A stretch of 64,000 nucleotides of DNA from an uncultured Flavobacteriaceae bacterium. Its GTDB lineage: Bacteria > Bacteroidota > Bacteroidia > Flavobacteriales > Flavobacteriaceae. The translations under genes and the position numbers were made by a program. Under the pieces are notes generated by a model, which saw nothing but the letters and a program-made list of their open reading frames with translations, was not told the origin of the DNA and ran no database searches. This document shows, in pieces, positions 2,081-59,721 of the stretch. Every line of letters begins with the position of its first letter. The stretch's first letter is position 1. The DNA is taken from positions 729,246 to 793,245 of the forward strand of contig CANNAN010000001.1 in the NCBI GenBank assembly GCA_947502635.1, given 5' to 3'.

Positions 2081-2222
2081 TATAGTGTTAAATTGAATTA
2101 ATATTGGTTTTGTAAGAAAAACATCTAATTTTGTTAGGTGTCTTATATCAAATATTGAAACGTTAGATATCATAACATTCTCTACAATTTGAGAAATTAA
2201 AATTTTTAAATAAATATTATGT

Positions 2223-4985
2223 ATGAAAATAAGGAATTCTGTAGATGAATTAAAAGATACTAAATTATGGAAATATTTAAGAGGTATTGATGAAAATTAC
2301 TCAGAAATATGTGTAAATTTTGTTGAATTAGTTACTCCTATATTAAAATCAATTCATGATTTTTTTCCTTTTTATACAAGGCACGATGCCCATCATGGAT
2401 ACAGAGTTATCATACGTATTGAACAGATTATTAAAGAAGAATGTATAATAGAAAACGGTGAATTAAGTTTTACTCCACAAGAAATATTGCTTCTAATAGC
2501 TTCCGCTTATGCTCATGATTTGGGAATGGCAGTTTTTCCAGAAGAAGAAACTGAACTTTTAAGTTCATTGAATATTATAAAAGATGATGAATGGAAAACA
2601 AATAAAATACTTCAAAAATATCTTCGAGATGAACACTCAATAAGAGGAGAGAAGTTTATTTCCGAAAATGTCAACAAAATTGGAATTCCCCAGAATTTAG
2701 TAAAACCATTAGGAAATATAATGAGGTCGCATAATTTGCATGTACATGACTTAGAAATTGATCTAGGAAAGAGGTTTGCTGCTGGAGAAAAAGAAATTAA
2801 TTTATCACAATTAGCATGTATATTATGTATAGCTGATGCTTTAGAGTATAGTGATACTAGAGTTATTGATGGTGTGCTAGATAAATTGGCGAAATTAGAA
2901 AATACAGACTCAGTAATTTCTTACAGGGAAAATATGAAGCATATTTGTATAGGTGATAGCGTTGCAATTGGAGATAGAGACGGTAGAGTAATATTTTCAG
3001 GCTCGTTTAATGAACCAGAAGTTTTAGCATTAGCACATAATACTATTGATTTAATCGAAGATTGGGTCACACAATATTGCGAGATAGATAATAAGCAATC
3101 AAATTCTAGACTAAAAATTAAACCTTTAACTTTTTATAGGAATTTGGAAATAGTTGGTTTTGATTTTGAACGATTGGGAATAAAAGTAAAAAAGGAAAAT
3201 ATAATAAGCCTAATTTCATCTAACTCTACATGGTCAAATTCTCATTCAGTAGTTTTTAGAGAATTATTACAAAATGCTATTGAAGCATGTAGGTATAGAG
3301 CATTTCATACACCAACCTCAAAGGCTTATAAATCTGAAATTTCTATTGCTTTTAATAGAGTTGAAAATACTATCATTATAGAAGATAATGGTTGCGGTAT
3401 GAGTAAAAATATAATACTAAATCATTTTCTAAATATTGGCAATAGTAGATCAAGCTTATCAACATATACAAGTAATAACTTCAATTCATTAGCTCGTTTT
3501 GGTATTGGCTTTTGGTCAGTTTTCACTATTTCCTCTAATGTTTTAGTTGAGTCGGCACCTTTCGAATTTCTTAGAAATGAGGAAGATATAGATGGAGTTG
3601 TTCAAGGGTATGGCTTTAATGTTAGTATTGAACAATATAAAGATTATCTTGTTTTTAAACCTATTCAAAGAAAAGTTGGTACAAAAATCACCCTCAAATT
3701 AGAAAATAATATAAGTATTGATGATGTTATAAGTACTTTTAATAAGGAAGTTTTATTTACAATTTTTCCAGTAAGGGTATTTATTGATAATAAGTTTTAT
3801 TTTGAACTTCCAAATAAAATTGAAAAGATAGGTTTTGAAGAACTATTTGAGACAAGACTTATTGCCGCTAAAGCAGAAGAAGTAAAGCTTTTTTCTAGAA
3901 TTTATGAAAAAGATGATGTTACAATTTCTATATGTTTTGCTTATAGAATCAATGAAAATAATCAACTAACTTTTAGGTTGTCTGATAAAGTTAATACTAT
4001 TCAACAATTGCTACCAATAGGTAGCAGTAACCTTCTTGAATATTCAGTTTCTGGATTTAAAGTAAGATTTGGACATATACATACTTGTTTTGAATTGTAT
4101 AGAATTGGTGTTTATAAGGTTAATATCAAGAATAGTGACGGAATTGAATTTCGTTTAGATAGAAATACATTAATTGAATCAGATAGAGTTGAAGAGCTAA
4201 AAAAGAATATTAGTATTTATGCTCATGAAGCTTATATGGAGTTTCTTAAAAAGAATGGCTCTTACAATAAAGAGAATATCTATTTATTGAATAAAGAATC
4301 AAGGCTTCATGGAGGTGGAGTGATGGATAATTATACAAAAGAAATACTTCATATTTCTCAAAAGTACTATCCCGATTTAATATGTTTTAAGCTTATTCAT
4401 ATAACAAAAGAAAAGAATATTGAAAATGCAGACGTTATTTATTTGAATATAAATGAGCTAATTAAAGGAGATTTTGAAATAAGAACTATCCAAAATCCAA
4501 TGATGTCTAACAGAAATCTTAAAGCAGAAGATTTGATGGGTTTTATGTATTCTTTTCTAGCTAAAACAGAAAGTAATAATAATGTCTATTTGATAGAACC
4601 ATGTGTAGAAGGTTCACTTTTATTCGATAATGACACGAATAGTTCAGTGTTTTCAATTAAGATAGGTGCAGGGTTTATTAATGTCATGAGAATGAGTACT
4701 TTAAGACTGGACAAGGAGCATTCATGGATTATTACTGATGTTAGAGGTAGATGGAGTGGTTATATTTATGAAAGAAATATTTTAGGAGAAGAACATTTAG
4801 ATTTTGTATTTCTTGGAAGATATAGATTGATTTTAAATAATAATTCAGAAATATCACAAAAAATAAAGAAACTTAGTAAAGAAAATAGGAAATATGAAAT
4901 ATCTGAAATAGCACATCTGTTATCAGAGGCTTATTCAGGTAATATAAGTGTGAAGTTAAAAGAATTTTTTCCTAATTCGTTTTAA
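2223..4985 (+). CDS. HD-domain (HD-CE-like) fused to HSP90-like GHKL ATPase; putative conflict/defence protein
   Basis: HD module: YTRHDAHHGYRV, AYAHDLGM, H...RSH, CIADALE. GHKL module: FRELLQNAIEA, IEDNGCGM, ARFGIGFWS, GTKITL. Long unassigned C-terminus. Confidence 0.75.
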   Translation: MKIRNSVDELKDTKLWKYLRGIDENYSEICVNFVELVTPILKSIHDFFPFYTRHDAHHGYRVIIRIEQIIKEECIIENGELSFTPQEILLLIASAYAHDLGMAVFPEEETELLSSLNIIKDDEWKTNKILQKYLRDEHSIRGEKFISENVNKIGIPQNLVKPLGNIMRSHNLHVHDLEIDLGKRFAAGEKEINLSQLACILCIADALEYSDTRVIDGVLDKLAKLENTDSVISYRENMKHICIGDSVAIGDRDGRVIFSGSFNEPEVLALAHNTIDLIEDWVTQYCEIDNKQSNSRLKIKPLTFYRNLEIVGFDFERLGIKVKKENIISLISSNSTWSNSHSVVFRELLQNAIEACRYRAFHTPTSKAYKSEISIAFNRVENTIIIEDNGCGMSKNIILNHFLNIGNSRSSLSTYTSNNFNSLARFGIGFWSVFTISSNVLVESAPFEFLRNEEDIDGVVQGYGFNVSIEQYKDYLVFKPIQRKVGTKITLKLENNISIDDVISTFNKEVLFTIFPVRVFIDNKFYFELPNKIEKIGFEELFETRLIAAKAEEVKLFSRIYEKDDVTISICFAYRINENNQLTFRLSDKVNTIQQLLPIGSSNLLEYSVSGFKVRFGHIHTCFELYRIGVYKVNIKNSDGIEFRLDRNTLIESDRVEELKKNISIYAHEAYMEFLKKNGSYNKENIYLLNKESRLHGGGVMDNYTKEILHISQKYYPDLICFKLIHITKEKNIENADVIYLNINELIKGDFEIRTIQNPMMSNRNLKAEDLMGFMYSFLAKTESNNNVYLIEPCVEGSLLFDNDTNSSVFSIKIGAGFINVMRMSTLRLDKEHSWIITDVRGRWSGYIYERNILGEEHLDFVFLGRYRLILNNNSEISQKIKKLSKENRKYEISEIAHLLSEAYSGNISVKLKEFFPNSF

Positions 4986-5158
4986 TATCAAATTTCTAAA
5001 TAAAATACGAAAAACTTATTAATTTTTTCCACCATTAGTAGTAGTTTTAGTAATAATAGTTAGATTTTTTTATTATTGATAATAAGTTTTAGATCTACAA
5101 AATAAGTTAATGTATTATCGTAAACAAGTTATACAGACTCTTGACTAGATTAAGCGTA

Positions 5159-5839
5159 TTATTTATTTAATATATCTAAAATTTTTGAAACCCCAACTGT
5201 AGCAGGTTCAGCAATAACTGTTAAATTTTTTTTACTGGCAATATTAGGTTTAGGATCTATAAAGTAAGTTGGTGTGTTTTGTGGTACATAATTCATCAAG
5301 CCTGCGGCAGGATACACCTGCATAGATGTACCTATAATGATTAAAATATCTGCTGTTTCACAAATAGAAATGGCTTTTTCAATCATAGGAACATCCTCTC
5401 CAAACCAAACAATATGAGGTCGTAATTGAGCGCCTTTTTTACAAGTATCACCCAAGACTAAATCTGTTTGCCATTCTTGAATATCGGTTTCATTAAAAGT
5501 ACTTCTTACTTTAAGTAATTCACCATGTAAATGAATTACGTTGCTGCTTCCTGCACGTTCGTGTAAATCGTCAACATTTTGCGTAACAATGGTGACTTTA
5601 AAGTTATTTTCAAGTTCAGCTAAATCAAAATGAGCGGAATTAGGTTCCACTTCAAAAAGTTGTTTGCGGCGTTGGTTGTAAAAATCTAAAACCAATGCAG
5701 GATTTCTCTTAAAACCTTCGGGTGTTGCTACTTCCATAACATCGTGGCCTTCCCACAAGCCATCTGCATCTCTAAAGGTTTTAATACCACTTTCGGCACT
5801 CATTCCAGCACCAGTAAGAACAACAAGGTGTTTTTTCAT
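5159..5839 (-). CDS. cobB: NAD-dependent protein deacylase, Sir2/CobB family
   Basis: GAGMSAESGIKTFR, TQNVDDLHERAG, HLHG, RPHIVWFGE, GTSMQVYPAA. Start placed at ATG 5839 (MKKHLVVLTG) rather than 5890. Confidence 0.92.
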   Translation of the reverse strand: MKKHLVVLTGAGMSAESGIKTFRDADGLWEGHDVMEVATPEGFKRNPALVLDFYNQRRKQLFEVEPNSAHFDLAELENNFKVTIVTQNVDDLHERAGSSNVIHLHGELLKVRSTFNETDIQEWQTDLVLGDTCKKGAQLRPHIVWFGEDVPMIEKAISICETADILIIIGTSMQVYPAAGLMNYVPQNTPTYFIDPKPNIASKKNLTVIAEPATVGVSKILDILNK

Positions 5840-5922
5840 ATGGTAAAAATAGCTATTATTTGTTATTCCTACTAAAGTAAAAATCCACACTTTTTTATTA
5901 AATTCGATGTTTAACTGTAAAC

Positions 5923-6579
5923 ATGATAGATTTAGAGCTTTTAGACCATTTAGAGACTTATTTAACAGAAAACCGTAAAGAACGTTTTGATAATGTTTTA
6001 TCTCAGCGCACCAAATATTATACAGTAGCTACAGAAGATGTTTATCAACTACATAATACAAGTGCTGTGATAAGAAGTTGTGATGTGTTTGGTATACAAG
6101 AGGTAAACATTGTTGAAGAGCAAAACTCAAAAGATATTGATAGAGAAATTGCTATGGGTGCCCAAAAATGGGTGGATTTAAATAGATATGATACCGTTGT
6201 TGATTGTATTTCAGATTTAAAGCAAAAAGGGTACCAAATTGTAGCTACTACACCCCATGCAAATGATTGTGATTTACATGAATTTGATATCACTAAAAAG
6301 TCCTGTTTTTTCTTTGGAAGAGAGACCGAAGGATTATCTAAAGAAGTTTTAGATGCAGCAGATTGCTATTTAAAAATACCTATGGTTGGTTTTACAGAGA
6401 GTTTAAATATATCGGTTTCTGCAGCCATCATTTTACAATATGTTACTAGTAAGTTAAGGCAAACACCTATGAATTGGCAACTTACAGAGCAAGAGGTTAT
6501 AGAAAAACGTTTGGACTGGTGTAAAAAAACAATTAAAAGTTATGATGAGATTGTTGCTCGTTTTTATAATCAGCAATAA
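5923..6579 (+). CDS. trmH: TrmH/SpoU family tRNA Gm18 methyltransferase
   Basis: HNTSAVIRSCDVFG, FFFGRETEG, IPMVGFTESLNISVSAA. Confidence 0.85.
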   Translation: MIDLELLDHLETYLTENRKERFDNVLSQRTKYYTVATEDVYQLHNTSAVIRSCDVFGIQEVNIVEEQNSKDIDREIAMGAQKWVDLNRYDTVVDCISDLKQKGYQIVATTPHANDCDLHEFDITKKSCFFFGRETEGLSKEVLDAADCYLKIPMVGFTESLNISVSAAIILQYVTSKLRQTPMNWQLTEQEVIEKRLDWCKKTIKSYDEIVARFYNQQ

Positions 6580-6620
6580 TTTTTGTAATTTTAAAACCAT
6601 TAATTAAAAAACTGTTAATC

Positions 6621-7148
6621 ATGTATATAGCTTTTTATATAATCATTGCAATTATTGGTTTATTTGTTCTTTTAGCACTCATAGCTCCTAAAAAATATCA
6701 GGTAAACCGAAGTATTGTAATCAATAAACCACTTCCAGAAGTATTTCAATATTTAAAGCATATAAAAAACCAAGATAATTGGTCGCCTTGGAAAAAGAAA
6801 GACCCAGATATGAAGCAAGAATTTATTGGCCGTGACGGTGAAGTTGGATTTATAGCTAAATGGGATGGTAATAAAGACGTTGGTTTGGGAGAACAAGAAA
6901 TTACGAATATTGTTGATAATGATAGGGTAGAAGCTAGGTTACGATTCTTTAAACCTTGGAAATCTGAATCTGATGCCATTACAAGCGTTGAAGAAGTTGC
7001 GGGAGGAAATACAAAGGTGACTTGGGGTTTTTCTGGAGTTAATAAAGTGCCTGCCAATATTTTTATGATGTTTTATAATGTAGATAAACATGTAGGGAAA
7101 GATTTTGAAGAAGGTTTAGTAAGTTTAAAAGAAATTTTAGAAAATTAG
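6621..7148 (+). CDS. SRPBCC/START-fold protein with N-terminal TM anchor
   Basis: Hydrophobic N-terminus, VNRSIVINKP, WSPWKKKDP, VGKDFEEGL. Confidence 0.85.
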   Translation: MYIAFYIIIAIIGLFVLLALIAPKKYQVNRSIVINKPLPEVFQYLKHIKNQDNWSPWKKKDPDMKQEFIGRDGEVGFIAKWDGNKDVGLGEQEITNIVDNDRVEARLRFFKPWKSESDAITSVEEVAGGNTKVTWGFSGVNKVPANIFMMFYNVDKHVGKDFEEGLVSLKEILEN

Positions 7149-7153
7149 AAATT

Positions 7154-7531: not shown

Positions 7532-7549
7532 TTAAAGGAGTAAAAAAAG

Positions 7550-7582
7550 GTCATTCATAAGGAGGAACGACTGGAAGAATCT
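7550..7582 (+). repeat. REP-like element (GTCATTC...GAATCT family), diverged
   Basis: GTCATTCATAAGGAGGAACGACTGGAAGAATCT between convergent genes, with the same ends as the copies at 12326 and 34475. Confidence 0.5.
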
Positions 7583-7593
7583 AAGCATTATTT

Positions 7594-12141: not shown

Positions 12142-12325
12142 TTTTGTATAAGTATTCGATTATGTTTGTAGTGTTACATAAAGAAGCGAATCGACATACT
12201 TAACCTTAAACTTCTATTAACACACCCTCACTCTGAGGAATTTAACTCACTTTCTGAGTTTCAAGCGGCGAAGATAGGTAAAAAATATCATTTCCTTGAA
12301 AGAGGACTCTTTTTAAATTTGACTT

Positions 12326-12350
12326 GTCATTCCTGAAAAGGCAGGAATCT
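12326..12350 (+). repeat. REP-like palindrome GTCATTCCTGAAAAGGCAGGAATCT
   Basis: 25-bp imperfect palindrome (ATTCCTG/CAGGAAT), with related copies at 7550, 34475 and 35167. Confidence 0.7.
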
Positions 12351-12518
12351 TATTAATTGAAGTTTTTATTCTTTTGCATTTTCGAGGTTTTAACACGCTT
12401 TGTTCATGCATTTATATTTTAAGTTGAGGAATTCTTGAATATAAATATTTCGTTACTAAATCTTTTGGAAAAAATAAAAAGGATTTCAAACATACCGTCT
12501 AATCGTTAGCATAAAGAA

Positions 12519-12869
12519 TTATTCCTCTTTTAAAAAAACGGCACCATCTTGAACCCTTTTTAAAGTGGTTTCATTTATTATCTCGAAAGTAATCTCTTCA
12601 TTATAGTTGGCATTTTCCTCTAATTCAATTTTATTACCTTGAATAGTATAATTCATTAATAAAACAATATCTCCAAAAGCAATAATATAAGCTTTTGAAT
12701 CATCTATAAATGAGATTCTACTAATACAGTTTGGTTCTATTTCGACGCTATTACATTTAACAATATTATCATTAAACTGACCGTTAATATCAAAAGATGG
12801 TGCTTTATCATTATTAGAACAAGAAAAGAATACTAAGAAGGAAAATAAAATAAGATAAAAATTTTTCAT
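12519..12869 (-). CDS. Hypothetical lipoprotein
   Basis: Lipobox FFSC, 116 aa, no family recognised. Confidence 0.7.
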   Translation of the reverse strand: MKNFYLILFSFLVFFSCSNNDKAPSFDINGQFNDNIVKCNSVEIEPNCISRISFIDDSKAYIIAFGDIVLLMNYTIQGNKIELEENANYNEEITFEIINETTLKRVQDGAVFLKEE

Positions 12870-20473: not shown

Positions 20474-21934
20474 ATGAGCACAGAAATAAGACAACTTCAA
20501 CCACAACAGCTTTGGACTAAATTTGCAGATTTAAATGCTGTACCAAGAGGATCTAAAAAAGAAGAACGTGTTATTGCGTTTATGAAAGATTTTGGTAAAA
20601 CACTAGGTTTAAATACCATTGAAGATGAAGTTGGAAATGTTATTATAAAAAAGCCAGCAACTTCTGGAATGGAGAGTAGAACGACCATTGTTATGCAATC
20701 TCATTTGGACATGGTGCATCAGAAGAATGGGGATACTAATTTTAATTTTGATACCCAAGGGATTGTAATGTATGTTGAGGGTGATTGGGTACGTGCCAAA
20801 GGAACAACTTTAGGAGCAGATAATGGTTTAGGAGTCGCTACTATAATGGCTATTTTGGAAAGTACAGATATTCCGCATCCTGCTATTGAAGCTTTATTTA
20901 CTATAGATGAAGAAACTGGTATGACAGGAGCTATGGGTTTAAAAGGCGGATTGCTCTCTGGAGGCATCCTTTTAAATTTGGATACAGAAGAAGATAATGA
21001 AATTGGTGTAGGTTGTGCAGGTGGTATTGATGTCACAGCGACAAGAACTTATAACGAAGAAGAAACTCCCGAATTTAAAATAGGATATAAGATTACTGTA
21101 AAAGGATTACAAGGTGGGCATTCGGGGATGCAAATTCATGAAGGTTTAGGGAATGCTAATAAAATAATGAATCGCGTATTATTTGATGGTTTTGAAAATT
21201 ACGGATTGAGAATTTCGGAAATTGATGGCGGGAGTTTACGTAATGCCATTCCTCGCGAAAGCAATGCTATAGTTGCTATTGATGCGGTTCATGAAGATGC
21301 TTTTTTATTAGAAATTGCTTTGATCTCTAATGTTCTTAAAAAGGAATTAAAAACGATGGAACCAGATTTAGAAATTAATATTTCTAAAATAGACACACCA
21401 AAGTATATTATGGACTTAGGGGTTCAGGAAGGATTGACCAGAGCTTTATATGCCGCTTATAATGGTGTTTACAGAATGAGTGCAGATATTCCTGAGTTGG
21501 TGGAAACATCAAATAATATTGCTAGGGTATTGGTTAAGGATGGGCATATTCATATTGGCTGTTTAACGCGTTCTTCTGTTGAAAGTTCTAAGATGGATCT
21601 GGCAAATACATTACGAGCAACTTTTGAATTAACAGGTTGCGAAGTAGAGTTTTCTGGTGATTATCCAGGATGGACACCTAATATGGATTCAGCTATCTTA
21701 AAGGTAATGACTGAATTGTATGAAGATCTGAATGATGAAAAACCACATGTAGCAGCGTGTCATGCTGGGCTAGAATGTGGTATTCTAGGAACAAATTATC
21801 CAGAAATGGATATGATTAGTTTTGGACCTAATATAAAAGGAGCACACTCACCCGATGAGCGAGTTCAAATATCTTCTGTTCAAAAATATTGGAAGTTTGT
21901 TTTGGAGATATTGAAGGGGATACCAGTTAAATAA
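20474..21934 (+). CDS. pepD: Aminoacyl-histidine dipeptidase (M20C)
   Basis: QSHLDMV, TLGADNGLG, DEETGMTGA, NLDTEED, HAGLECG, HSPDERV. TATCTTTG promoter box at 20434-20441. Confidence 0.95.
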   Translation: MSTEIRQLQPQQLWTKFADLNAVPRGSKKEERVIAFMKDFGKTLGLNTIEDEVGNVIIKKPATSGMESRTTIVMQSHLDMVHQKNGDTNFNFDTQGIVMYVEGDWVRAKGTTLGADNGLGVATIMAILESTDIPHPAIEALFTIDEETGMTGAMGLKGGLLSGGILLNLDTEEDNEIGVGCAGGIDVTATRTYNEEETPEFKIGYKITVKGLQGGHSGMQIHEGLGNANKIMNRVLFDGFENYGLRISEIDGGSLRNAIPRESNAIVAIDAVHEDAFLLEIALISNVLKKELKTMEPDLEINISKIDTPKYIMDLGVQEGLTRALYAAYNGVYRMSADIPELVETSNNIARVLVKDGHIHIGCLTRSSVESSKMDLANTLRATFELTGCEVEFSGDYPGWTPNMDSAILKVMTELYEDLNDEKPHVAACHAGLECGILGTNYPEMDMISFGPNIKGAHSPDERVQISSVQKYWKFVLEILKGIPVK

Positions 21935-21955
21935 AATTATTGGAAGAGATGTTTT

Positions 21956-22115
21956 GTTTAACATCTCGGCCGAAATTAATAGAAGTAAGCTTTAGGTTAG
22001 GTGCTTAGCCCATATTTTAATTTTGTTTTATCTTTTCTATCTAAAACCAGATTAAAAAATTTGGTGGACTAAGTTATTAAGCACTAACACCCATATTAAT
22101 TAGTCATTGTTGTGT
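21956..22115 (-). repeat. attC-like long imperfect hairpin (160 bp)
   Basis: On the - strand it starts ACACAAC 11 nt after the lipoprotein stop and ends GTTAAAC (GTTRRRY). Paired arms AATTAATA/TATTAATT, GTTAGGTGCTTA/TAAGCACTAAC, TTAGCCC/GGACTAA. Confidence 0.6.
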
Positions 22116-22126
22116 ATCGTGTCTTT

Positions 22127-22792
22127 TTATTTCATTCGATACTTAAAATCAGGAATTCCTCTTAAAAAAAGCGTGTCATCTATATATGCTCCAGCATTTA
22201 ATTTTCCTTCAAAAGTATCAAATTCAAATTCTCCATCAACCTCGTTATAATAAGAATAGTACATCATTCCAATTTGAATATTTGTAATCATTTGTGGATG
22301 CAAATAGGATTGGGGGGTAGAATTCTGATAATGGTTTGGAAGGATAACATCAAAAACAGATTCATGATTTTCGGAAAAGTATTTCAATACATATTGTTGG
22401 TTCGCTTTGAGTAATAAGTTGTTTTCTAATTCAACGTATTGAAACACACTCTCATTAGTTACATTAAGTTTCTTGCTTAAAACAATAGGTTCAGTTTCAT
22501 GTAAAAGCCCCCAATCACTGTAAGACTCAATAATTTCAATTTCATAATTACCCGCTGTAGCCATGCGTCCACCAACGGCTGTTATTTCGATATCTACGTG
22601 TGGTTTGAAATAGAATCCGCGTTTAGTTGCCTTATGTAGGTAATCACTATTCAATTCATTTATAGGTTCTATAACAATTTCTGAATCTTCCAAGAATAAT
22701 CCTTCTAACATTCCGTGAGGTTCAAGTATTTGCTCATCAGTATTATTACACGAGGTAACAAGTATTAGTAATAAAATACAAAGTTTTTTCAT
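22127..22792 (-). CDS. Hypothetical lipoprotein (possible beta-sandwich)
   Basis: Lipobox LVTSC, 221 aa. TATCTTTG box at 22850-22857 (- strand). Confidence 0.7.
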   Translation of the reverse strand: MKKLCILLLILVTSCNNTDEQILEPHGMLEGLFLEDSEIVIEPINELNSDYLHKATKRGFYFKPHVDIEITAVGGRMATAGNYEIEIIESYSDWGLLHETEPIVLSKKLNVTNESVFQYVELENNLLLKANQQYVLKYFSENHESVFDVILPNHYQNSTPQSYLHPQMITNIQIGMMYYSYYNEVDGEFEFDTFEGKLNAGAYIDDTLFLRGIPDFKYRMK

Positions 22793-22938
22793 TTTTTGAT
22801 ATGTCTTTAGTTCAAGTAGTTTTTTTGTACATTATACATAGACACAATACAAAGATAAAGTTCCGCTTCAATGAACTTTATTGATTGCTAAACGAAGTTA
22901 GTGGAAAATTTTTACAAAATCAAGGAGAATAATTATGT

Positions 22939-23163
22939 TTAAGGGACTGGGTCATAACCAGAGCCACCCCAGGGATGACAACTAAAAATACGCTTTAAAG
23001 CCAGTTTTCCGCCTTTAAATAAACCATGTTTTTTTAAAGCTTCTTTGGTGTAGTGCGAACATGTGGGGTGAAATCTACAAGTTGCAGGCGTTAAAGGTGA
23101 TATGAATATTTGATATATTTTTATCAAAAATAAAAACGGCGCAATGAGTAGTTTTTTTAACAT
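22939..23163 (-). CDS. yidD: Membrane protein insertion efficiency factor YidD
   Basis: [30 protein letters not shown]. Confidence 0.95.
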
Positions 23164-30962: not shown

Positions 30963-30994
30963 TTATAAATAAATAACACCTTTCAAAATAATTT

Positions 30995-31027
30995 AAAAGC
31001 CTTGGCAAATAATTGCTAAGGCTTTTT
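30995..31027 (+). terminator. Intrinsic terminator
   Basis: AAAAGCCTTGGCAA-ATAA-TTGCTAAGGCTTTTT. Confidence 0.75.
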
Positions 31028-31106
31028 AGTTTCGTAATTCTGTTCTGAAATTGTATTATGGTTTAATCATAGTTAGTGATTGGCTTTATTTTACTGGAAT
31101 AATTAT

Positions 31107-31299
31107 CTATAACTTTAAATATATGGCAAGCAGGGCAAAAAACAAGCGATTATTTTCAGTTTAGCCACAAGCCAAATCTTTTATGTTTTGTTTTAATTTT
31201 TCTCTTTTAATACCAAATCAAAAGATTTGGCACTTCGAAAATAGACAATAATCGTTCGACTAAACACTAATCACCTTATTTGCTATACATGTGTTTGTA
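31107..31299 (-). repeat. attC-like long imperfect hairpin (193 bp), homologous to 21956-22115
   Basis: On the - strand TACAAAC ... GTTATAG ends. Perfect 12-bp inverted repeat GCCAAATCTTTT (31171) / AAAAGATTTGGC (31220). Outer arms ATATGGCAA/TTGCTATAC. Confidence 0.6.
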
Positions 31300-31309
31300 A
31301 TTTTTAATT

Positions 31310-31822
31310 TCAATCCATCCAAGGATAATCAACAATAAATCCAAATTTATTCAATTTTTGAAAGTCATCTTCGGTCAAATCGTTTTCAAAATCAATTGTT
31401 TCTCCATTTATTAAATCAGTTAGAATTTGTTTAGATTCAAGTGTTCCTTTATCTGTCATTTTTTTCAAAAGTGATACCATTGATTTCAAGTTGAAATTTT
31501 CACTTTTAACAAATGATAAAATAATTTTAGAAGTATCTTTTTCTAAATAAGGATCTCCATATTTTTCAAATGATTCGATTGAGTCCTCAACAAATCGACC
31601 AGAACCTGTCTGAAACAATTTTCCATCAGTTTTAGAAACTATAGTCGGCCCTTGTCCAATTGCAATATCTTCAATTTTTTTAGATTCAAGGTATTTGTCC
31701 GATTGATAAAAAACAGCAAAACAAGTTTCCGATTCCATAGTAGATTCTGCAATAACAGAGAAACCTTTTAAGGTCTCCGTTAAATGGACTTGAACTAGTT
31801 TTTTAGCTTCTCTTTTAGTCAT
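31310..31822 (-). CDS. YrhB/Imm35-like protein (putative immunity protein)
   Basis: FAVFYQSDKYLE...IGQGPTIVSKTDGKLFQTGS resembles the YrhB/Imm35 pattern. Confidence 0.6.
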   Translation of the reverse strand: MTKREAKKLVQVHLTETLKGFSVIAESTMESETCFAVFYQSDKYLESKKIEDIAIGQGPTIVSKTDGKLFQTGSGRFVEDSIESFEKYGDPYLEKDTSKIILSFVKSENFNLKSMVSLLKKMTDKGTLESKQILTDLINGETIDFENDLTEDDFQKLNKFGFIVDYPWMD

Positions 31823-31965
31823 AGCTTATAAATAATGCCAACGATTAAATATACTTAGCAGGTAACAATATCTTTATTATGCTCGCATCACACTAAAATA
31901 ATTAATTTTTGTCATTGTAAGTGAGCTTTTAGGATAGGAGATATTGTTTACATCAAATATTTTGT

Positions 31966-32004
31966 AAAAAAAAGCCTTAACTATTTAATATAGCTAAGGC
32001 TTTT
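31966..32004 (-). terminator. Intrinsic terminator after rho
   Basis: AAAAGCCTTA...TAAGGCTTTT hairpin with an A-run on the + strand (U-tract on the - strand). Confidence 0.7.
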
Positions 32005-50186: not shown

Positions 50187-50816
50187 CTATAAAATTTCAA
50201 TTTTATTCCTGCTGAGTTTTATTTTGTTTTCGTTTTCAAATTGCTTTAAAAGTCTAGAGATAACAACACGTGATGTATGTAAATCTTCGGCAATATCTTG
50301 ATGTTTTACAATAATAATGTTAGATGTATGAAGCTTAACTTTGTTAATTAAATACTTATAAAGACGTTCGTCCATTTTCATGAAAGCCAAATTATCTATA
50401 GCTTCCAGCATTTCATCAAAACGAGTTTGGTAACTTTCTAGTATAAAATTTCGCCAACTTTCATTATTATGAAACCATGTTTGCATGTTTTGAACAGGAA
50501 TCATAATAAGACTTGAGTCTTTTTCAGCAACAGCTCTGATTTTACTTCTGGAAGTTCCCATACAACAAGTGAGAGACATGGTACAGGTTTCTCCTGCTTC
50601 TAAAAAATAGATAAGTAATTCATTACCGTCATTATCTTCTCGGAGTATTTTTATATTTCCGCTTAATAAAAGTGGTATATACTGTAAAGGTTGATTAATA
50701 TCTATAATAATATCATCTTTAGAAAAGGTGCTTATAGTACCAATTTTTCCGATTTCATCTATTAAGACCTCATCAAAAATATGATTGAATTTTTGATATA
50801 ATAATTTCTTTCCCAT
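50187..50816 (-). CDS. Crp/Fnr family transcriptional regulator
   Basis: cNMP-binding-like GETCTMSLTCC and HTH HQDIAEDLHTSRVVISRLLK. Start ATG 50816 (TTG 50822 is an alternative). Confidence 0.92.
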   Translation of the reverse strand: MGKKLLYQKFNHIFDEVLIDEIGKIGTISTFSKDDIIIDINQPLQYIPLLLSGNIKILREDNDGNELLIYFLEAGETCTMSLTCCMGTSRSKIRAVAEKDSSLIMIPVQNMQTWFHNNESWRNFILESYQTRFDEMLEAIDNLAFMKMDERLYKYLINKVKLHTSNIIIVKHQDIAEDLHTSRVVISRLLKQFENENKIKLSRNKIEIL

Positions 50817-50996
50817 ATTCAAAAATAATGAATTACAAATTAAGAGTTAGGGCAAAAAACAATACAATAATTGGGACAATCACAAGAAGTCAATTGTTTT
50901 TTAAGTTATATTAGTTGGAATTTATAAATAATGTTGTTTCATGCTGTTAATACCCAGAGGAAGCAAAATTTATTAAAAACTAAAAGATGGAAAAAC

Positions 50997-52817
50997 ATGA
51001 ATAAAACGATTAACTTATTTGTTAAAACGTGCTTGATAACCCTTTTTTTTACCCAATTAAATGCACAAAAAATAAAAGGAGAACTTAAAAAGTGGCATAA
51101 AGTTACTCTAGAATTCAAGGGACCGGAAACTTCTGAAAAAGCTGAAGACAACCCATTTTTAAATTATAAATTGGACGTAACCTTTAAGCATAATGTTTCA
51201 GGAAAAACCTATGTGATACCAGGGTTTTATGCTGCAGATGGAGTTGCAGCCAACACTAGTGCCACAGCTGGGAATGTTTGGAAAGTTCATTTTTCGCCAG
51301 ATGAAGAAGGAGCTTGGACCTATAGTGTCAGGTTTGTAAAAGGTAAATGGGCAGCGATAAGGACTTCGAACAAATTGAAGTCTGCTGGATTTATGGATAA
51401 AGATAAGGGCGGTTTTTCTATTGCTTCTTCAGACAAAACTGGACGGGATATGAGGGCCAAAGGCCGTTTGCAATATGTTGGAGAACGTTATTTAAAGTTT
51501 GCCGAGACTGGAGAATATTTTTTGAAATGCGGTTCTGATGCTCCTGAAAATTTATTATCCTATGTAGATTTCGATGGTACATTTAAAAAAGATGGTATAA
51601 AAGACGATTTGGTTAAAACCTGGGAGCCCCATAAAAAGGATTGGAAGCCAGGCGATCCTGTCTGGAAGGATACCAAAGGCAAAAGTATTATAGGAGCTGT
51701 TAATTATTTAGCTTCAAAAGGTATGAATGCCTTTTCCTTTATTACTATGAATATTGAAGGAGACGACAAAAACGTATTTCCATATGTAGACTATCATACT
51801 ATAGATCGTTTCGATGTGTCTAAATTGGATCAATGGGAGATCGTTTTTGAGCATGGTGAAAGATTGGGAATGTTTTTACATTTTAAAACTTTAGAGGCAG
51901 AAAATCAGGGGCTTTTAGATAATGGAGGTGTTGGACTTTATACCAAATTGTACTACAGGGAATTAATTGCCCGTTTTGGGCATCATTTGGCCTTAAATTG
52001 GAATTTATGTGAAGAAACTGGCGATTGGCAAAACCCTCCCAGAACATTTCCTGTTGATGCTCAGGGGCGTTTAACATTGGCTAATTATGTTAATTCTATT
52101 GATTCGTATAAGCATCACATAGTAATACACAACGGTAATTGGTTTACAGAAATCTATGGAAAAGACAGCAAATTTAGTGGAGCGTCGCTTCAAACGAATA
52201 GGGAGGACTTTGGTAATGTACATAAAAGAGTATTACAGGTTTTAAAAGAGGCAAAGGCTGAAGGGAAAATATGGGCCGTAGCGTGTGATGAGCCTGGAGA
52301 TGCGCAACATTCTCTGGTACCAGACGCTGATGATCCAGAACATAATAATGCTAGGAAAAATGGTTTATGGGGAGCCATGTTAGCTGGAGCCTGGGGAACA
52401 GAATGGTATTTTGGTTACAAACATGCACATTCCGATTTAACCTGTCAGGATTTCCGATCTCGAGATCTGTTCTGGACTCAGGGGAAAATTTGTTTAGATT
52501 TTTTTAATGATAACAAGGTTCCTGTTTGGGAAATGACATCTAGAGATAATTTAATATCTAACAAGGGAGACTATGTTTTAGCTAAACCTGGTAAAGTGTA
52601 TGTGGTTTTCTTAAAAAATGGCGGAGAGTCTCAGCTTAATCTGGAAAATAATAATACCACCTATGAAGTATTTTGGTATAACCCACGAAAAGGAGGGAAG
52701 CTATTAAAAGGGAAAGTAACATCAATTTCAGGAGAGGGATTCCAGTCGTTAGGATTACCACCAAAGGATAAAGACAAAGACTGGGTTGTTCTTATCAAAT
52801 CAATAGCTAAATCATGA
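50997..52817 (+). CDS. Secreted DUF5060-domain, glycoside-hydrolase-like protein with C-terminal putative collagen-binding domain
   Basis: Signal peptide from ATG 50997, WHKVTL.F.GP, GFYAADG, WKVHFSPDEEGAW, WNLCEE, WYNPRKG. Confidence 0.75.
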   Translation: MNKTINLFVKTCLITLFFTQLNAQKIKGELKKWHKVTLEFKGPETSEKAEDNPFLNYKLDVTFKHNVSGKTYVIPGFYAADGVAANTSATAGNVWKVHFSPDEEGAWTYSVRFVKGKWAAIRTSNKLKSAGFMDKDKGGFSIASSDKTGRDMRAKGRLQYVGERYLKFAETGEYFLKCGSDAPENLLSYVDFDGTFKKDGIKDDLVKTWEPHKKDWKPGDPVWKDTKGKSIIGAVNYLASKGMNAFSFITMNIEGDDKNVFPYVDYHTIDRFDVSKLDQWEIVFEHGERLGMFLHFKTLEAENQGLLDNGGVGLYTKLYYRELIARFGHHLALNWNLCEETGDWQNPPRTFPVDAQGRLTLANYVNSIDSYKHHIVIHNGNWFTEIYGKDSKFSGASLQTNREDFGNVHKRVLQVLKEAKAEGKIWAVACDEPGDAQHSLVPDADDPEHNNARKNGLWGAMLAGAWGTEWYFGYKHAHSDLTCQDFRSRDLFWTQGKICLDFFNDNKVPVWEMTSRDNLISNKGDYVLAKPGKVYVVFLKNGGESQLNLENNNTTYEVFWYNPRKGGKLLKGKVTSISGEGFQSLGLPPKDKDKDWVVLIKSIAKS

Positions 52818-52885
52818 TTGGTTTTTAGAGATAATAACCCCTTGCTTTTGTTCAAAAAAAATGAATTACAAATTTGGAATAAAAA

Positions 52886-54130: not shown

Positions 54131-54156
54131 AACCACCATTAATCAAACATAAAAAA

Positions 54157-54681: not shown

Positions 54682-54747
54682 TTTCGTTAATTATTTTATT
54701 TATTTTGATACTTTTTCATTTTTATTATTTGATCAATAACACTGTTT

Positions 54748-55137: not shown

Positions 55138-55433
55138 AATATTTTTAAATTTAGAATTGCGAGAACTCTTTACAAATACTAAATACATTTAGTCATGTTT
55201 TTTAAGCCAAGAGTTATACCAGAAACCATCAGAAACAATTAGGTTATCATAAAATAATATTTAATTAATTGATTTTTAGTATGTTGTGTTGTTTTTTTTG
55301 TGTGTTTTTGAAACCAAATAGAAGAAAACATACTGTTTAAAAAACACGATATATCCTATCTGAAAATGTATTTCTATGATATTTCGTATATTTAAGAAAG
55401 CCCTTATCGAATTCTAACCAAAATTTTAAAATT

Positions 55434-58400: not shown

Positions 58401-59156
58401 ATTGAATCTGAATTGTTTGGTCATGAAAAAGGTGCGTTTACAGGTGCTAATATACAACGTATTGGGAAATTTGAATTAGCGGATAATGGAAGTATCTTTT
58501 TGGATGAAATTGGTGAATTACCTATTGAAGTACAAGCAAAATTATTACGCGTTATTCAAGAAAAAGAATTTGAGCGTTTGGGAGGAAACAAAATTATTAA
58601 AACTGACGTACGCATAATTTCTGCAACAAACAGAAATCTAGAGGACGAAATTTCTAAAGGAAACTTTAGGTCAGACCTTTTTTTTAGATTAAATGTGTTT
58701 CCTATAGAGATACCTCCTCTACGAGAAAGACCAGAAGATATTGCTGCGTTGGCTATTTATTTTTTAAATAAAAGCTCTAAAAAAATTGGTAAAAAAATAA
58801 CGAGTATTTCAAGTAATTCATTAAAAAAATTGATGGGCTATGATTGGCCAGGAAATATTAGAGAATTAGAGCATGTTATAGAAAGATCAATACTCCTTAA
58901 CAAAGGATCTACCTTATCTATAAATCTAGAAAAGCGAAACATTGACAGAGATAATGAGAAGAAAACGGAAGGTCTTTTTCAAGTAAAAACATTTGAAAAA
59001 GCAGAGCGTGAATTAATACTTAAGACATTAAAGTTTTGTGGCGGAAAAGTTCGTGGTTCAGGAGGGGCAGCTGAATTGTTAGATATGAATCCTTCTACTT
59101 TAGATTCAAGAATAAAGAAACTGGAAATATCTAAAGTTCATATTTTTGAAAATTAA
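55434..59156 (+). CDS. Sigma-54-dependent activator (FhlA-like) with about five GAF domains, AAA+ and Fis HTH
   Basis: GETGTGKE, ESELFGHEKGAFTGA, FLDEIGE, FRSDLFFRL, WPGNIREL, GAAELLDMNPSTLDSRIKKL. Confidence 0.93.
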   Translation: MSGIKKGKNKIRVFNKNQLNAIILKLNTLIASIRDREKLLEFIFIILKHELGFDNATIHLWEDQEKKLSVFSQTKPSKNLKESFSIKGTPYEKCHNNRRIEFLDFSAKNNFFLNTPASKRLSKLKYVEGLIIPLFFEDNKIGIIELLSSKKGHLKTLELKLLEAIGVQMAITISNILLQEENLEKKKEKETLLKVSQAMTTIQRREDLFSFIMNQIRPVINFQDAVAVEVNSSKTHHKTFLTISPKSTQENPRYHKVVGQWLPIEGGIVSWTLSQSKDIFFSSTEKLLKLFPESIIANLMKEEALNHSLILKLYSSRILKGFIVFHFTERPEFSIEKMNVFKGLANQISMALLNILTNENALRKENEKEILLSISKAMVTIRDRDELFSFIMNQIRPIINFQDAAVVEINNQKTHHHLFLTMSPESTKEHPIYKKVIRNWIPIEGDLIEWMLEQEDDLFVSHIDDLQNLYPESSIVKTMKEISLNHYLILKLYSSGVLKGLIIFSFIDEPKIDLQRTNFFKNIANQVSMALVNIIANEDILRRQKEKEILLNISEHLSQVRQWNDLFDSVFIKLQSIFMFEEAIIILPISKSIKKYKILSRTTINKNKNKPSIEIYSNEFTKPSHFNILYTLKKPKLFSIEEYEKLSPEFIGIDLMKKTGANATWVQPLRNANNVIGILEFYYKSNLEASNINVSLFENVVNQLSVTVSNILANDDISEREKIKVLRGKLALSLTSQSNWPSRFLEITNALKKVVPFELVTFVLDAEGDFDKGYAFEKIGYDEYRLISADQFYKLSGKTLQEFKNERSKTPYIKPEIFNDQDFIIKTKVDSLKKAISNIFHVKSNLNIPLKLNLNGFFQLSFYSKKKVAYNNMHLNQMNLLIESIVHPLEKVLAYEQIEQLNSLLKQEKDYLQEEIKYNYNFEEIVGNSEGIKKVFLKVSQVAYTNSTVLITGETGTGKELIARAIHNLSSRKKKPLIKINCAALPSQLIESELFGHEKGAFTGANIQRIGKFELADNGSIFLDEIGELPIEVQAKLLRVIQEKEFERLGGNKIIKTDVRIISATNRNLEDEISKGNFRSDLFFRLNVFPIEIPPLRERPEDIAALAIYFLNKSSKKIGKKITSISSNSLKKLMGYDWPGNIRELEHVIERSILLNKGSTLSINLEKRNIDRDNEKKTEGLFQVKTFEKAERELILKTLKFCGGKVRGSGGAAELLDMNPSTLDSRIKKLEISKVHIFEN

Positions 59157-59454
59157 TTTTTAAGTGTTTTTTTATAATATATAAAGTTCCAATTGAATAT
59201 TCAGTCCAATTCGTTGTATATTCCACTTGTTTACACTCAGAACTAATTCCAACTGTAATACTTTTAATTCCTTTATCATTTAGTTCTTTAGATAATGCTT
59301 TGCCTATGTCTTTTGGATATGTGAATTTACCTTGATTTGAAATCACAAATGTGGCTTTTAAAATCCGCTGAGTTAAATTATACCATTCGGCTTGCTTATC
59401 TGTAAATTGTTCTATTTTTTTAGTGACGATTTCTTTTCTTTTTACTCTATTGTT
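59131..59454 (-). pseudogene. Possible decayed ORF
   Basis: The - frame is open for 108 codons from 59454 to the stop at 59131, with no ATG and stops upstream. Protein-like composition; no family recognised. Confidence 0.3.
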
Positions 59455-59574
59455 TTACAGGACAGAAGACTAAAAGTTAAGAAAAAATCAGAATTATGGT
59501 TCTTAGACGGTTCATTTCTCAAATTAGGTATAAAATATGTAGTTAATAGTAACTACATATTTTATATATGCGTA

Positions 59575-59721
59575 CTAAGATAATACATCTTTTATCTGCA
59601 TAAAGTTATTTGTAGTTACATGAGTATATATTTTTGTAATTTCAGTAGAGTTATGACCTAATAAATACTGAATGTAACGAGTATCTGTACTACTTTCTAA
59701 GAGATTTTCTGCAAAACAGCA
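59575..59721 (-). pseudogene. C-terminal remnant of a tyrosine recombinase (IntI/XerD-like)
   Basis: My translation CCFAENLLESSTDTRYIQYLLGHNSTEITKIYTHVTTNNFMQIKDVLS* matches RHSFATHLLExGxDLRYIQxLLGHxSxxTTxIYTHV. The HxxR box is lost and there is no start codon. Confidence 0.8.

Follow-up and report, generated by a model that had tools for sequence, protein, structure and literature searches.

The window analysed in this work, a 64,000-nt stretch of DNA from an uncultured Flavobacteriaceae bacterium (genome G000), carries two solitary relic cassettes located between core genes (cysS/peptidase M20, and rho), a decayed recombinase tail upstream of one of them, and a further recombinase relic at 59.5 kb. 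Separate terminators flank the window units. A preliminary description of this DNA had assigned to one system four hairpins, following the genes at 2223, 12519, 22127, and 31310; those after 22127 and 31310 are real and homologous, whereas those after 2223 and 12519 are not members. The features are as follows (window positions, strand):

4986..5158, plus: spacer after the HD-CE/HATPase gene 2223..4985; outside the system (z +0.77; no BLAST, HMM or covariance-model match)
12142..12518, minus: spacer after ORF 12519..12869; outside the system (z +0.09 and +0.55; best R1 match 11.7 bits, E 2.9)
21953..22118, minus: cassette 1, degenerate long-class element (R1 50.6 bits with the L box shown as a deletion; nhmmer; fold z −3.27)
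22118-22109, minus: cassette 1 element, R'' GATACACAAC
22067-22046, minus: cassette 1 element, inner hairpin
21962-21960, minus: cassette 1 element, putative R' GTT
22127..22792, minus: cassette 1 cargo, 221-aa ORF with no Pfam match, taken for a lipoprotein in the preliminary description; stop 8 nt before R''
30972..31961, minus: whole inserted block of cassette 2 (relic tail, attI-like site, cassette, element, and 85 nt of further DNA)
31100..31303, minus: cassette 2, long-class attC-like element (R1 157 bits; nhmmer; fold z −3.48)
31303-31293, minus: cassette 2 element, R'' ..AAATTACAAAC
31289-31274, minus: cassette 2 element, L'' arm
31231-31212, minus: cassette 2 element, inner conserved hairpin
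31135-31119, minus: cassette 2 element, L' arm
31113-31111, minus: cassette 2 element, R' GTT, plus a 14-nt extension to 31100
31310..31822, minus: cassette 2 cargo, 170-aa Imm35-like (immunity-protein-like) ORF; stop 10 nt before the R'' extension
31828..31960, minus: second relic, newly found in this analysis (decayed recombinase 3' tail and decayed attI-like site)
about 31960-31893, minus: decayed 3' tail of the array recombinase gene, final TTTTAG
31871-31828, minus: decayed attI-like palindrome, spacer and GTT, ATATTGTTACC TGC TAAGTATAT TTAATC GTTGGCA (motif compared with intact loci)
59532..59563, minus: attI-like perfect palindrome with 14-bp arms after the relic stop (fold z −6.95; compared with intact loci)
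59575..59721, minus: C-terminal fragment (about 48 codons) of an array-type Xer-like recombinase, ending in ..LLGHNSTEITKIYTHVTTNNFMQIKDVLS and a stop (PF00589)

Hairpin elements and relics in the window

The homology of the hairpins located 3' of 22127..22792 and 31310..31822 (both minus strand) was confirmed by alignment. Both folded better than shuffles (z −3.27 for the 22127 hairpin and −3.48 for the 31310 hairpin), and both matched a covariance model (R1) built from the genome-wide copies of the element. Only two significant matches to the R1 covariance model were present in the window, at 31104-31303 (minus strand, 157 bits, E 1e-24) and 21953-22118 (minus strand, 50.6 bits, E 9e-7); the corresponding nhmmer E-values were 2e-35 and 4e-15. 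The 31310 element begins with ..ACAAAC 10 nt past the stop codon and ends in ..AAAGTT, and the 22127 element begins with ..CACAAC 8 nt past the stop and ends in ..GATGTT. In the latter, the L stem is mostly deleted, and a terminator-like hairpin (21946-21967) overlaps the 3' end of the element. On the other hand, the spacers 3' of 2223..4985 and 12519..12869 folded no better than shuffles and gave no match to three element profiles or to the covariance model, and a four-way alignment of the hairpin regions revealed no element common to all four. Pfam identified the 2223 ORF as an HD-CE/HATPase protein and gave no match for the 12519 ORF. The 12519 spacer holds just an unrelated short repeat, TTCCTGCCTTTTCAGGAATGACAAGTC, dispersed genome-wide.

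Comparison with congeneric genomes, another proposed check, revealed that both window cassettes are missing at the same sites in relatives. The block 21934-22942 is missing in G011 and G007, where the flanks are 23 bp and 59 bp apart, respectively, and the block 30972..31961 is missing in three congeners, G007, G003, and G010, whose empty sites measure 68-151 bp; elsewhere among the congeners, unrelated inserts occupy either spot. The rho terminator (31966-32004) lies on one side of the latter block and a second terminator (30995-31027) on the other. Its cargo ORF matched Pfam PF15567 (Imm35) with an E-value of 5.7e-6 and 26.8 bits, just below the cut-off of 27.5. Upstream, the GTT of the decayed attI-like site is found at 31842-31840, 17 nt ahead of the ATG. 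Local alignment of the 31828..31960 relic to recombinase-tail/attI copies of the same genome gave scores of 76 (C12), 67 (C27), and 59 (C24), the maximum of 200 shuffles, run for the C24 comparison only, being 57. Pairing of the 31310 R'' with the 5' GTT flank was no better than chance, as was pairing of the 22127 R'' with its 5' flank in a hand check. The idea that the 31310 unit had simply been seeded at a GTT target does not agree with these data: it has its own decayed recombinase tail and attI-like palindrome upstream, and is therefore a stranded mini-platform.

The relic at 59575-59721 (minus strand), originally described as an integrase remnant of IntI/XerD type, is indeed a tyrosine recombinase relic (PF00589, E 3.2e-8, model positions 136-170, LLGH...IYTHV retained), but the array recombinase to whose family it belongs is not an IntI, scoring below the TIGR02249 cut-off and having no IntI insert. 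The fragment is 58% identical to the C27 fragment and matched the tail/attI profile with an E-value of 9e-15. This relic consists of recombinase tail and palindrome only, the latter without the GTT core that comes next in intact loci.

A family of attC-like elements organised in arrays

Genome-wide searches identified 89 copies of the element, which start with ..AAC, finish with GTT, and group by length into three classes, near 135, 190, and 280 nt; the usual length of attC sites is 57-141 bp. The arrays looked for at the suggestion of the preliminary description were found, and its view that the system is characteristically dispersed as single cassettes was not upheld: 67 of the 89 elements lie within co-oriented arrays and only about 11 are truly solitary. 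Solitary copies mostly have weak profile E-values, the 31310 copy being an exception. Elements with a neighbour at less than 6 kb had same-strand neighbours only (67/67). A same-strand ORF ends within 70 nt for 63 of 82 elements, and in 52 of those 63 the gap from stop to AAC is 8-15 nt, in agreement with the strict post-stop placement that had been predicted.

Over 17 copies, 77% of stem cells were paired, compared with 30-41% when the partner was slid, and the covariation score of the stem was 0.285 vs 0.09 or less, a value reached by none of 500 shuffles; two stem positions are conserved as non-pairs in these copies. In integrons, it is the folded single strand of attC that recombines, under the direction of extrahelical bases. 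The elements are AT-rich (G+C 0.29-0.47), no T-run follows the stem in the element alignments, and Rfam gave no match for them. Intrinsic terminators, which consist of a short G+C-rich stem and a T-run, were considered and rejected, given the length (135-280 nt), AT-richness, and lack of a T-run of the elements.

Elements are carried by all 12 species of the genus, one of which (G002) has an array of about 25, and the long attC-like sites initially proposed (AAC...GTT, imperfect stem, directly post-stop) are borne out in this Flavobacteriaceae genus. Three IS types insert at fixed positions within or beside the element, and IS110-family insertions were found in elements; IS110-family elements are known to target REP sequences. 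Among 47 cargo proteins checked, most had no match or functions other than immunity; one array carries DMP19, and array cargo includes GNAT, DinB, and toxin-antitoxin-like genes.

An array recombinase and its attI-like site in related genomes

The linkage of arrays to an intact homologous recombinase, proposed earlier as a test, was found in congeners. A Xer-like tyrosine recombinase of roughly 290-375 aa is intact in 6 of the 12, and comes in two lengths, 375 aa (long form) and about 290 aa (short form), with the catalytic R, K, HxxR, H, and Y invariant. The intact gene lies at the array head in G005, G006, G008, and G010; in G009 the contig ends two genes downstream, and in G011 only one partial element match is found downstream. 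In the complete systems of the congeners, a small Zn-ribbon gene is divergent from the recombinase gene. Over 80 recombinase loci from many Bacteroidota genera, all 64 element model matches were downstream of and co-oriented with the recombinase, and the family extends to Bacteroidales MAGs at 42-50% identity; judged from these loci, the system is widespread in Bacteroidota. About 20 nt after the recombinase stop codon, all intact loci conserve an attI-like site formed by a perfect palindrome (10-11 bp arms), a 5-8 nt spacer, and GTTRNNNNN(A/C)A(T/G). By analogy, we infer that the palindrome and GTT act as the insertion site.

Array-head recombinases scored 180-209 bits against the integron-integrase model TIGR02249 (cut-off 265), aligning in two stretches that skip the IntI-specific region, and VchIntIA (PDB 2a3v) also aligned with them in two stretches. 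Assignment of the array recombinase to IntI was rejected on the basis of this score and the lack of the IntI insert. Among the proteins of the genome under study, none reached the TIGR02249 cut-off, the best scoring 70.9 bits. No intact array recombinase is present in this genome, where the gene survives only as 3' fragments; the 89 elements are therefore frozen, and nothing is currently mobile by that route. In G002, with its array of about 25 elements, only two housekeeping Xer genes matched; frequent loss of the recombinase, or activity of a different enzyme, would explain this.

Cassette boundaries

The bases preceding the AAC of an element pair with those following the GTT of the previous element at 0.84-0.92 per position (positions +4 to +9, n = 62), compared with 0.30-0.68, equal to random, for its own downstream bases. 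The mean number of paired positions was 8.11 of 11 with the flank of the previous element vs 4.84 with the own flank, and in a permutation control the average was 4.8 and the highest of 5000 values 5.5. This pairing is the signature expected of integron cassettes with crossover at GTT. The same cassettes were found in different arrays: for one common to G008 and G000 behind unrelated elements, homology begins exactly at GTT, and in the C12 mini-platform exact pairing is seen between the first cassette and the GTT flank of the attI-like site. In two of three cross-array cassette comparisons, high identity begins 11-13 nt past GTT and not at GTT, and thus the exact cut position within the R box of about 14 bp is not fixed.

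Discussion

The two homologous hairpins of the window are very probably attC-like sites of a Bacteroidota integron-like cassette system with a Xer-type recombinase. The earlier proposal of an integron-like cassette system was correct for this Flavobacteriaceae genus, as supported by the attC-like sites, the window relic, the array-linked recombinase of relatives, and the empty sites. With the recombinase lost from this genome, the window holds only stranded relics. In congeners, the complete system consists of a divergent Zn-ribbon gene, the Xer-like recombinase, the attI-like site, and then the co-oriented cassette array, with each cassette made of one or two ORFs and an imperfect hairpin site. 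The order within this site is an R'' extension of ~14 nt ending in AAC, the L'' arm, a variable core with the conserved inner hairpin, the L' arm, a spacer of 5-6 nt, and R' GTT with about 11 nt. The recombinase would cut and rejoin at or beside GTT, so that a cassette would span from just after one GTT to the next. Cassette boundaries, recombinase-array linkage, post-stop placement, and stem covariation are demonstrated at the sequence level; circular excision, reintegration at the attI-like site, and the use of a folded single strand of DNA are predicted by analogy with integrons.

With their long, imperfect inverted termini and many dispersed copies, the elements look like MITE or REP-type repeats, in other words non-autonomous transposons bounded by long terminal inverted repeats and able to spread on their own through intergenic DNA, and the insertion of IS110-family elements, known REP targeters, is in line with this origin. 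However, the elements have a fixed orientation and lie at a fixed distance from the upstream stop codon, array neighbours are all co-oriented, as are the 64 matches with the recombinase, and R'' matches the flank of the previous element, which is unexpected of a self-contained transposon. In addition, no flanking direct repeat was evident on an informal look at the empty-site comparisons. The random placement named beforehand as the mark of MITEs was not observed, the elements being gene-linked and of fixed orientation; the boundary test already largely refutes this explanation, which we regard as extremely improbable. A role as RNA, in which the elements would be structured 3' UTRs, terminators, or stabilisers of accessory genes, would suit their location directly 3' of ORFs on the coding strand and their good folding as RNA, and stem covariation suits RNA as well as a folded DNA strand. 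Against it are the absence of Rfam matches and of a T-run after the stem, and the separate terminator-like hairpin of the 22127 unit; nor does it explain the pairing with sequence upstream of the own gene, the attI-like site, or the recombinase linkage. As the main function it is highly unlikely, although the elements may have a secondary RNA effect.

Two further explanations keep site-specific recombination and differ in the enzyme. If a classical IntI integron had left ordinary attC sites behind (CALIN/SALIN), this would account for the AAC/GTT cores, the R''/R' cassette logic, the post-stop placement, and a cargo of the type found in chromosomal integrons (GNAT, DinB, toxin-antitoxin-like). 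This origin has very little probability in view of the scores of this genome's proteins and of the array-head recombinases on the integron-integrase model, the skipped IntI-specific region, the two-stretch alignment with VchIntIA, a recombinase co-oriented with the array and not divergent, and size classes (about 190 and 280 nt) exceeding typical attC; moreover, classical integrons were almost absent from Bacteroidetes in published scans (10.1101/2022.02.28.482270). Alternatively, the housekeeping XerC/XerD could recombine the sites, as in IMEX or plasmid dif modules, with the array-head recombinase being dispensable. The dedicated enzyme is itself Xer-like, and large, well-conserved arrays persist in G002 and G000, neither of which has an intact dedicated recombinase. 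Nevertheless, integrase loss with retention of the array, as CALINs, is also common in classical integrons (10.1101/2022.09.11.507474), and we argue that the dedicated recombinase is the cognate enzyme because it is found strictly at the head of arrays, with an attI-like site, in many genera. We consider XerC/XerD action unlikely.

Comparison with known systems

The cassette system described here shares with classical integrons mostly promoter-less cassettes, each closed by an imperfect AAC...GTT hairpin starting right after the stop codon, a crossover at GTT as a result of which the 5' end of each cassette complements its own R'', a simple attI-like site adjoining the recombinase gene, frequent integrase-less arrays, and a diverse, mostly unknown cargo. 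Specialised IS elements insert in the sites of both, as do the IS1111-attC in integrons. In contrast to classical integrons, the recombinase fails the IntI model, its gene is co-oriented with the array, and a Zn-ribbon gene diverges from it. The R box, of about 14 bp, has a fixed 2-nt mismatch, site lengths fall into the three classes of about 135, 190, and 280 nt, and the counterpart of attI combines a perfect palindrome with GTT. The recombinase also lacks the IntI-specific insert, the additional domain around patch III of integron integrases (PMC9668308).

SALIN, CALIN, and attG insertion were defined with IntI and the IntegronFinder attC model (Loot et al., 10.1101/2022.09.11.507474). The solitary cassettes and integrase-less arrays outside a platform resemble them, as first proposed for this DNA; unlike SALINs, solitary copies are here a minority and mostly in a degenerate state, and at least one represents a stranded mini-platform, as opposed to cassette insertion at a genomic GNT site. 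Polyimmunity loci are likewise gene arrays beside Xer-type recombinases; the passage describing these immunity-gene arrays adjoining XerC/D recombinases proposes accretion by recombination, said only to be conceivable, and, unlike the system here, mentions no recombination sites (Zhang et al. 2012, PMC3482391).

rAID-1 is described, for Bacteroidales only, as an AT-rich, co-oriented array made up of short genes, with a XerD-like tyrosine recombinase at its 5' end and intergenic repeats 'reminiscent of integrons'; close recombinase homologues are said to be restricted to that order (10.1101/471110; 10.1101/2025.05.03.651265). As defined there, rAID-1 has a 5' XerD-like recombinase at least 44% identical to BF9343_RS08045, two or more co-oriented low-G+C downstream genes with intergenic repeats, and cargo dominated by orphan immunity genes. 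Word searches of these papers found nothing on the structure of the sites, the crossover point, or a counterpart of attI; in the 2025 preprint (10.1101/2025.05.03.651265) the mechanism is called an open question and the word 'hairpin' is absent. By description, both systems have a XerD-like recombinase at the 5' end of a co-oriented array and immunity-type cargo (Imm35-like here), and co-oriented low-G+C genes with repetitive intergenic sequences are also found in the arrays of the congeners, although the cargo here seems broad and not mainly of immunity genes. Tentatively, and with the chances somewhat short of even, Bacteroidota may possess an integron of their own, from Flavobacteriaceae to Cytophagales, with a Xer-like recombinase without the IntI domain, long folded attC-like sites, a conserved GTT, and an attI-like palindrome, rAID-1 being one branch. 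If true, this would explain the near-absence of classical integrons from the phylum, and the IntI insert would be dispensable for structure-specific cassette recombination.

Hairpins of the window

The preliminary description placed an attC-like hairpin behind each of four genes, named 2223, 12519, 22127 and 31310 by their start coordinates. All four genes are present in the window (C1:729246-793245), and alignment of the four downstream spacers revealed that only those following 22127 and 31310 are alike. These two spacers folded better than their shuffled counterparts (z of −3.27 and −3.48, respectively), whereas the 2223 and 12519 spacers behaved like shuffled sequence (z of +0.77, +0.09 and +0.55), matched none of the element models and yielded no element remnants in a profile search. 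An Rfam scan of the window returned two tRNAs and nothing else. The integrase relic proposed at 59575-59721 proved to be a genuine C-terminal tyrosine recombinase fragment (PF00589, E = 3.2e-8). Altogether, the preliminary description was partly right for the window, whose own features are inert relics, and it points to a real system.

Structure, census and cargo of the element family

The element, located 3′ of a cassette ORF, consists of an R″ box ending in AAC, an L″ arm, an inner hairpin, an L′ arm and an R′ box with GTT. Blast and iterated nhmmer searches of the source genome (5.45 Mb, 82 contigs) identified 33 copies of about 190 nt, many of them terminal on small contigs and paired with a copy on the same strand. 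Their alignment begins with ..YAAC, ends with CGTTRGC and contains a long imperfect stem, both arms of which vary in concert among sub-families. Owing to alignment shifts, default RNAalifold recovered the stem only in part, and the structure (R box, L stem and inner hairpin) was therefore set by hand and then tested. In 17 copies, 77% of cells were paired vs 30-41% when the partner was slid, with covariation scores of 0.285 and at most 0.09, respectively; two stem positions were almost never paired.

A second class of about 135 nt was discovered in arrays of congeners (the genus has 11 other species), and a third, of about 280 nt, in a co-oriented array of 13 cassettes on contig C2 of the source genome (239.9-260.5 kb; C2:239900-260550). 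The census of the source genome amounts to 89 elements (41 short, 31 long and 17 extra-long). The proposed scattering of single cassettes holds for about 11 truly solitary elements on large contigs, most with weak profile E-values (the 31310 element, at 2e-35, being the exception), but not for the 67 of the 89 that have a neighbour within 6 kb, on the same strand in every case.

Placement was analysed for 82 elements, 63 of which were preceded on their own strand by an ORF (50 aa or longer) whose end was no more than 70 nt away. The distance from stop codon to AAC was 8-15 nt in 52 of these 63, in agreement with the post-stop placement described for the window and indicating that the extended R″ box begins at the stop codon. 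The cargo of 47 cassettes was varied and mostly lacked Pfam matches, the matched genes encoding XRE HTH, flavodoxin-like, RadC, DMP19, ABC ATPase, OMP barrel, TPR, DinB, GNAT, SymE, MOSC and Schlafen-type helicase proteins. In the array of congener G005, a 433-aa tyrosine-recombinase-like ORF with a SAM-like and a partial catalytic domain (locus L033:6013-7314) occupies a cassette position, accompanied by an element of its own.

A covariance model built from element copies (R1) detected 7-34 elements per species in all 12 species of the genus. In congener G002, an array of about 25 R1 hits extends over about 22 kb and is bounded by a TonB-dependent receptor gene and rsgA, with an element after almost every gene and a recombinase at neither end; the same locus in the source genome spans only 5.5 kb.

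Recombinase and attI-like site

No protein of the source genome exceeded the integron-integrase cut-off. Its tyrosine recombinases comprise two housekeeping-type Xer genes, two pairs on contig C26, one 414-aa integrase and fragments, the best preserved of which (70 aa, contig C27) was used as the query for the genus. Intact recombinase ORFs were found directly upstream of arrays and co-oriented with them in four congeners (G005, G006, G008 and G010), which substantiates the suspected linkage to an intact homologous enzyme. The contig carrying the G009 recombinase stops after two downstream genes, and the G011 recombinase is followed by one partial element match and no more; fragments also occur in G001, G003, G007 and G011.

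The recombinases are 375 aa long, a shorter form of about 290 aa lacking an N-terminal extension, and show SAM-like and catalytic domains with invariant R, K, HxxR, H and Y residues. They score 212-214 bits on the XerA model (cut-off 220) and 180-209 bits, split into two stretches, on the IntI model (cut-off 265); the closest solved structures are archaeal XerA, then VchIntIA (in two stretches) and then XerD. Model scores and two-stretch structure alignments thus indicate an Xer/IntI-like recombinase without the IntI-specific insert. A Zn-ribbon gene of about 122 aa is always divergent from the recombinase gene. In the source genome this gene is intact (C24:1534-1905) beside a 41-codon recombinase stub, indicating that the recombinase was deleted in place.

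At every intact locus, a perfect palindrome about 20 nt past the recombinase stop is followed by a 5-8 nt spacer and GTTRNNNNN(A/C)A(T/G), which is also the motif at the GTT of every element. This attI-like site is retained at the recombinase fragments on contigs C27, C12, C18 and C24, and the 3′ end of the 280-nt class is similar to the attI-like site belonging to the short recombinase form. One array region of G007 (C29:215728-229804) contains at least six copies of a recombinase 3′ fragment, whose open frames measure 65-113 aa; it seems that modules of tail plus attI are duplicated or mobilised themselves.

A collection-wide search retrieved 560 recombinase relatives. The best 80 of these 560 belong to many Flavobacteriaceae genera, Cytophagales, Cyclobacteriaceae, Saprospiraceae, Marinilabiliaceae and Bacteroidales MAGs; many of their contigs stop shortly past the recombinase gene, and all significant R1 hits across these 80 loci (64/64) lie downstream on the recombinase strand. 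Cytophagales loci carry their own repeats of 131-142 nt, those listed (Arundinibacter locus) ending in ..AAAACGTTRGC. Downstream of the recombinase in a Prolixibacteraceae locus (L107), only unrelated tandem repeats were found.

Cassette boundaries

Cutting and joining at the GTT would assign the bases 3′ of a GTT to the following cassette, with whose R″ they would be expected to pair. In 62 pairs of consecutive elements, the bases 5′ of the AAC of one element paired with those 3′ of the GTT of the preceding element; the frequency was 0.84-0.92 from +4 to +9, dropped to nearly nil at +10/+11 and recovered from +12 to +14. Mean pairing was 8.11 of 11 positions vs a permuted mean of 4.8 and maximum of 5.5 (5000 permutations); with the bases downstream of the same element, pairing was at the random level. 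The extra-long class followed the rule wherever the search window reached far enough. On contig C12, the first cassette of a mini-platform (recombinase tail, attI-like site, cassette and element) pairs with the attI-like flank. For a cassette common to G008 and the source genome, preceded by unrelated elements, homology begins exactly at the GTT, and in two other shared-cassette pairs it begins 11-13 nt past it, which places the cut within the R box of about 14 bp. The pairing pattern is that predicted by site-specific cassette exchange; neither a self-contained transposon nor an RNA element, the alternatives considered for the repeated hairpin, would generate pairing between an R″ and the flank of the preceding R′.

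In at least three or four elements, an IS110-family element has inserted at one fixed position of the L″ arm, in parallel to the IS1111-attC elements of integrons:

Source genome, C32:2784-3839, IS110-family insertion
Source genome, C30:1-79, IS110-family insertion
Source genome, C62:1-77, IS110-family insertion
Recombinase locus L038:6901-8203, IS110-family insertion

Two further repeats of the source genome, GGTACGTTAAAGGCAC... (C24, C36, C61 and C62) and GACCCGTCCTGAAATAAGG... (C12, C18, C19, C68 and C69), begin exactly 14-15 nt past the GTT of many elements. Probably IS ends, they target the R box at its outer edge and are probably the reason why the assembly breaks at elements.

Relics of the window

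Both real units are flanked by core genes (cysS and an M20 peptidase gene; rho). The interval between ORF 30600 and rho measures 68-151 bp in G003, G007 and G010, and that from the peptidase gene to a small yidD-like gene 23-59 bp in G011 and G007. Both window blocks are absent from these orthologous sites. The two spots (21934-22942 and 30972-31961) lie between convergent genes and are insertion hot spots in the genus; congener inserts there are unrelated and comprise an ATP-grasp-like gene, an ORF of 380 aa and, between flanking GTCACTGCGAGGAGGAACGAC... repeats, a GIY-YIG gene.

Upstream of the 31310 ORF, a decayed recombinase tail with TTTTAG at its end precedes the following site:

31871-31828, decayed attI-like site: ATATTGTTACC TGC TAAGTATAT TTAATC GTTGGCA

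The GTTGGCA previously noticed upstream of 31310 is the core of this site. The relic was detectable only through direct alignment to other tail/attI copies, with scores of 76 to the C12 copy, 67 to C27 and 59 to C24, the shuffle control (200 shuffles, maximum 57) covering the C24 comparison only. Since the decayed tail and attI-like site sit upstream of its cassette and element, the 31310 unit is a stranded mini-platform, of a type also found on C12 and C24. It is bracketed by two terminators, and its R″ lacks convincing pairing to the 5′ flank (9/13), so the history of the unit is blurred. The element of the 22127 unit is badly eroded, and a platform remnant was not detected. Profile searches upstream of both window cassettes found no element remnants, and the complement of each R″, sought upstream of its gene, gave chance-level matches only. 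The ATTGTGT highlighted earlier at 22842-22848 was not upheld, having 2 mismatches in 9, with about 0.2 such matches expected there by chance (hand estimate).

The 59575-59721 relic is followed by a perfect palindrome (z −6.95), the GTT being missing, and sits at the edge of a five-gene operon (59953-63730). This operon is accessory DNA, since it occurs in just 2 of the 11 congeners and in other contexts; no empty site was found for the relic.

Two other window repeats were observed. A short hairpin repeat, TTCCTGCCTTTTCAGGAATGACAAGTC (12300-12350, minus strand), has at least 10 copies genome-wide and looks REP-like and unrelated to the cassette sites. A 66-nt direct repeat (50776-50841 and 52809-52874, 77% identical, ending in ..AATGAATTACAAATT) adjoins two genes and may be a shared regulatory region.

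Significance and relation to known systems

The window alone has modest practical meaning; its two cassettes are dead, and its two recombinase relics lie in a genome from which the enzyme has been lost. The anatomy of the system offers testable sites for the mechanism of rAID-1, the Bacteroidales clusters headed by an XerD-like recombinase: site boxes, GTT crossover, attI-like site and cognate recombinase. The pairing of R″ with the preceding R′ flank supplies a rule for which any array can be tested, and element profiles allow annotation of such cassettes in marine and soil Bacteroidota.

Integrons, the textbook gene-capture device, are generally regarded as dependent on IntI and as almost missing from Bacteroidota. 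Clusters of the rAID type occur commonly in gut Bacteroidales. Published scans found integrons nearly absent from Bacteroidetes (10.1101/2022.02.28.482270), and for classical integrons the occurrence of solitary cassettes (SALINs) and of attG insertion is established knowledge (10.1101/2022.09.11.507474). Polyimmunity loci adjoining XerC/D were noted in 2012 (PMC3482391), and in a 2025 preprint rAID-1 biogenesis is still described as an open question (10.1101/2025.05.03.651265). In the literature covered, which is incomplete and may lack an earlier account, we found the system described in no order other than Bacteroidales, and no account of its site structure or crossover. We rate the system as a cassette system of the integron/rAID type. 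It has its site logic in common with integrons, which are defined by the additional domain of IntI (PMC9668308).
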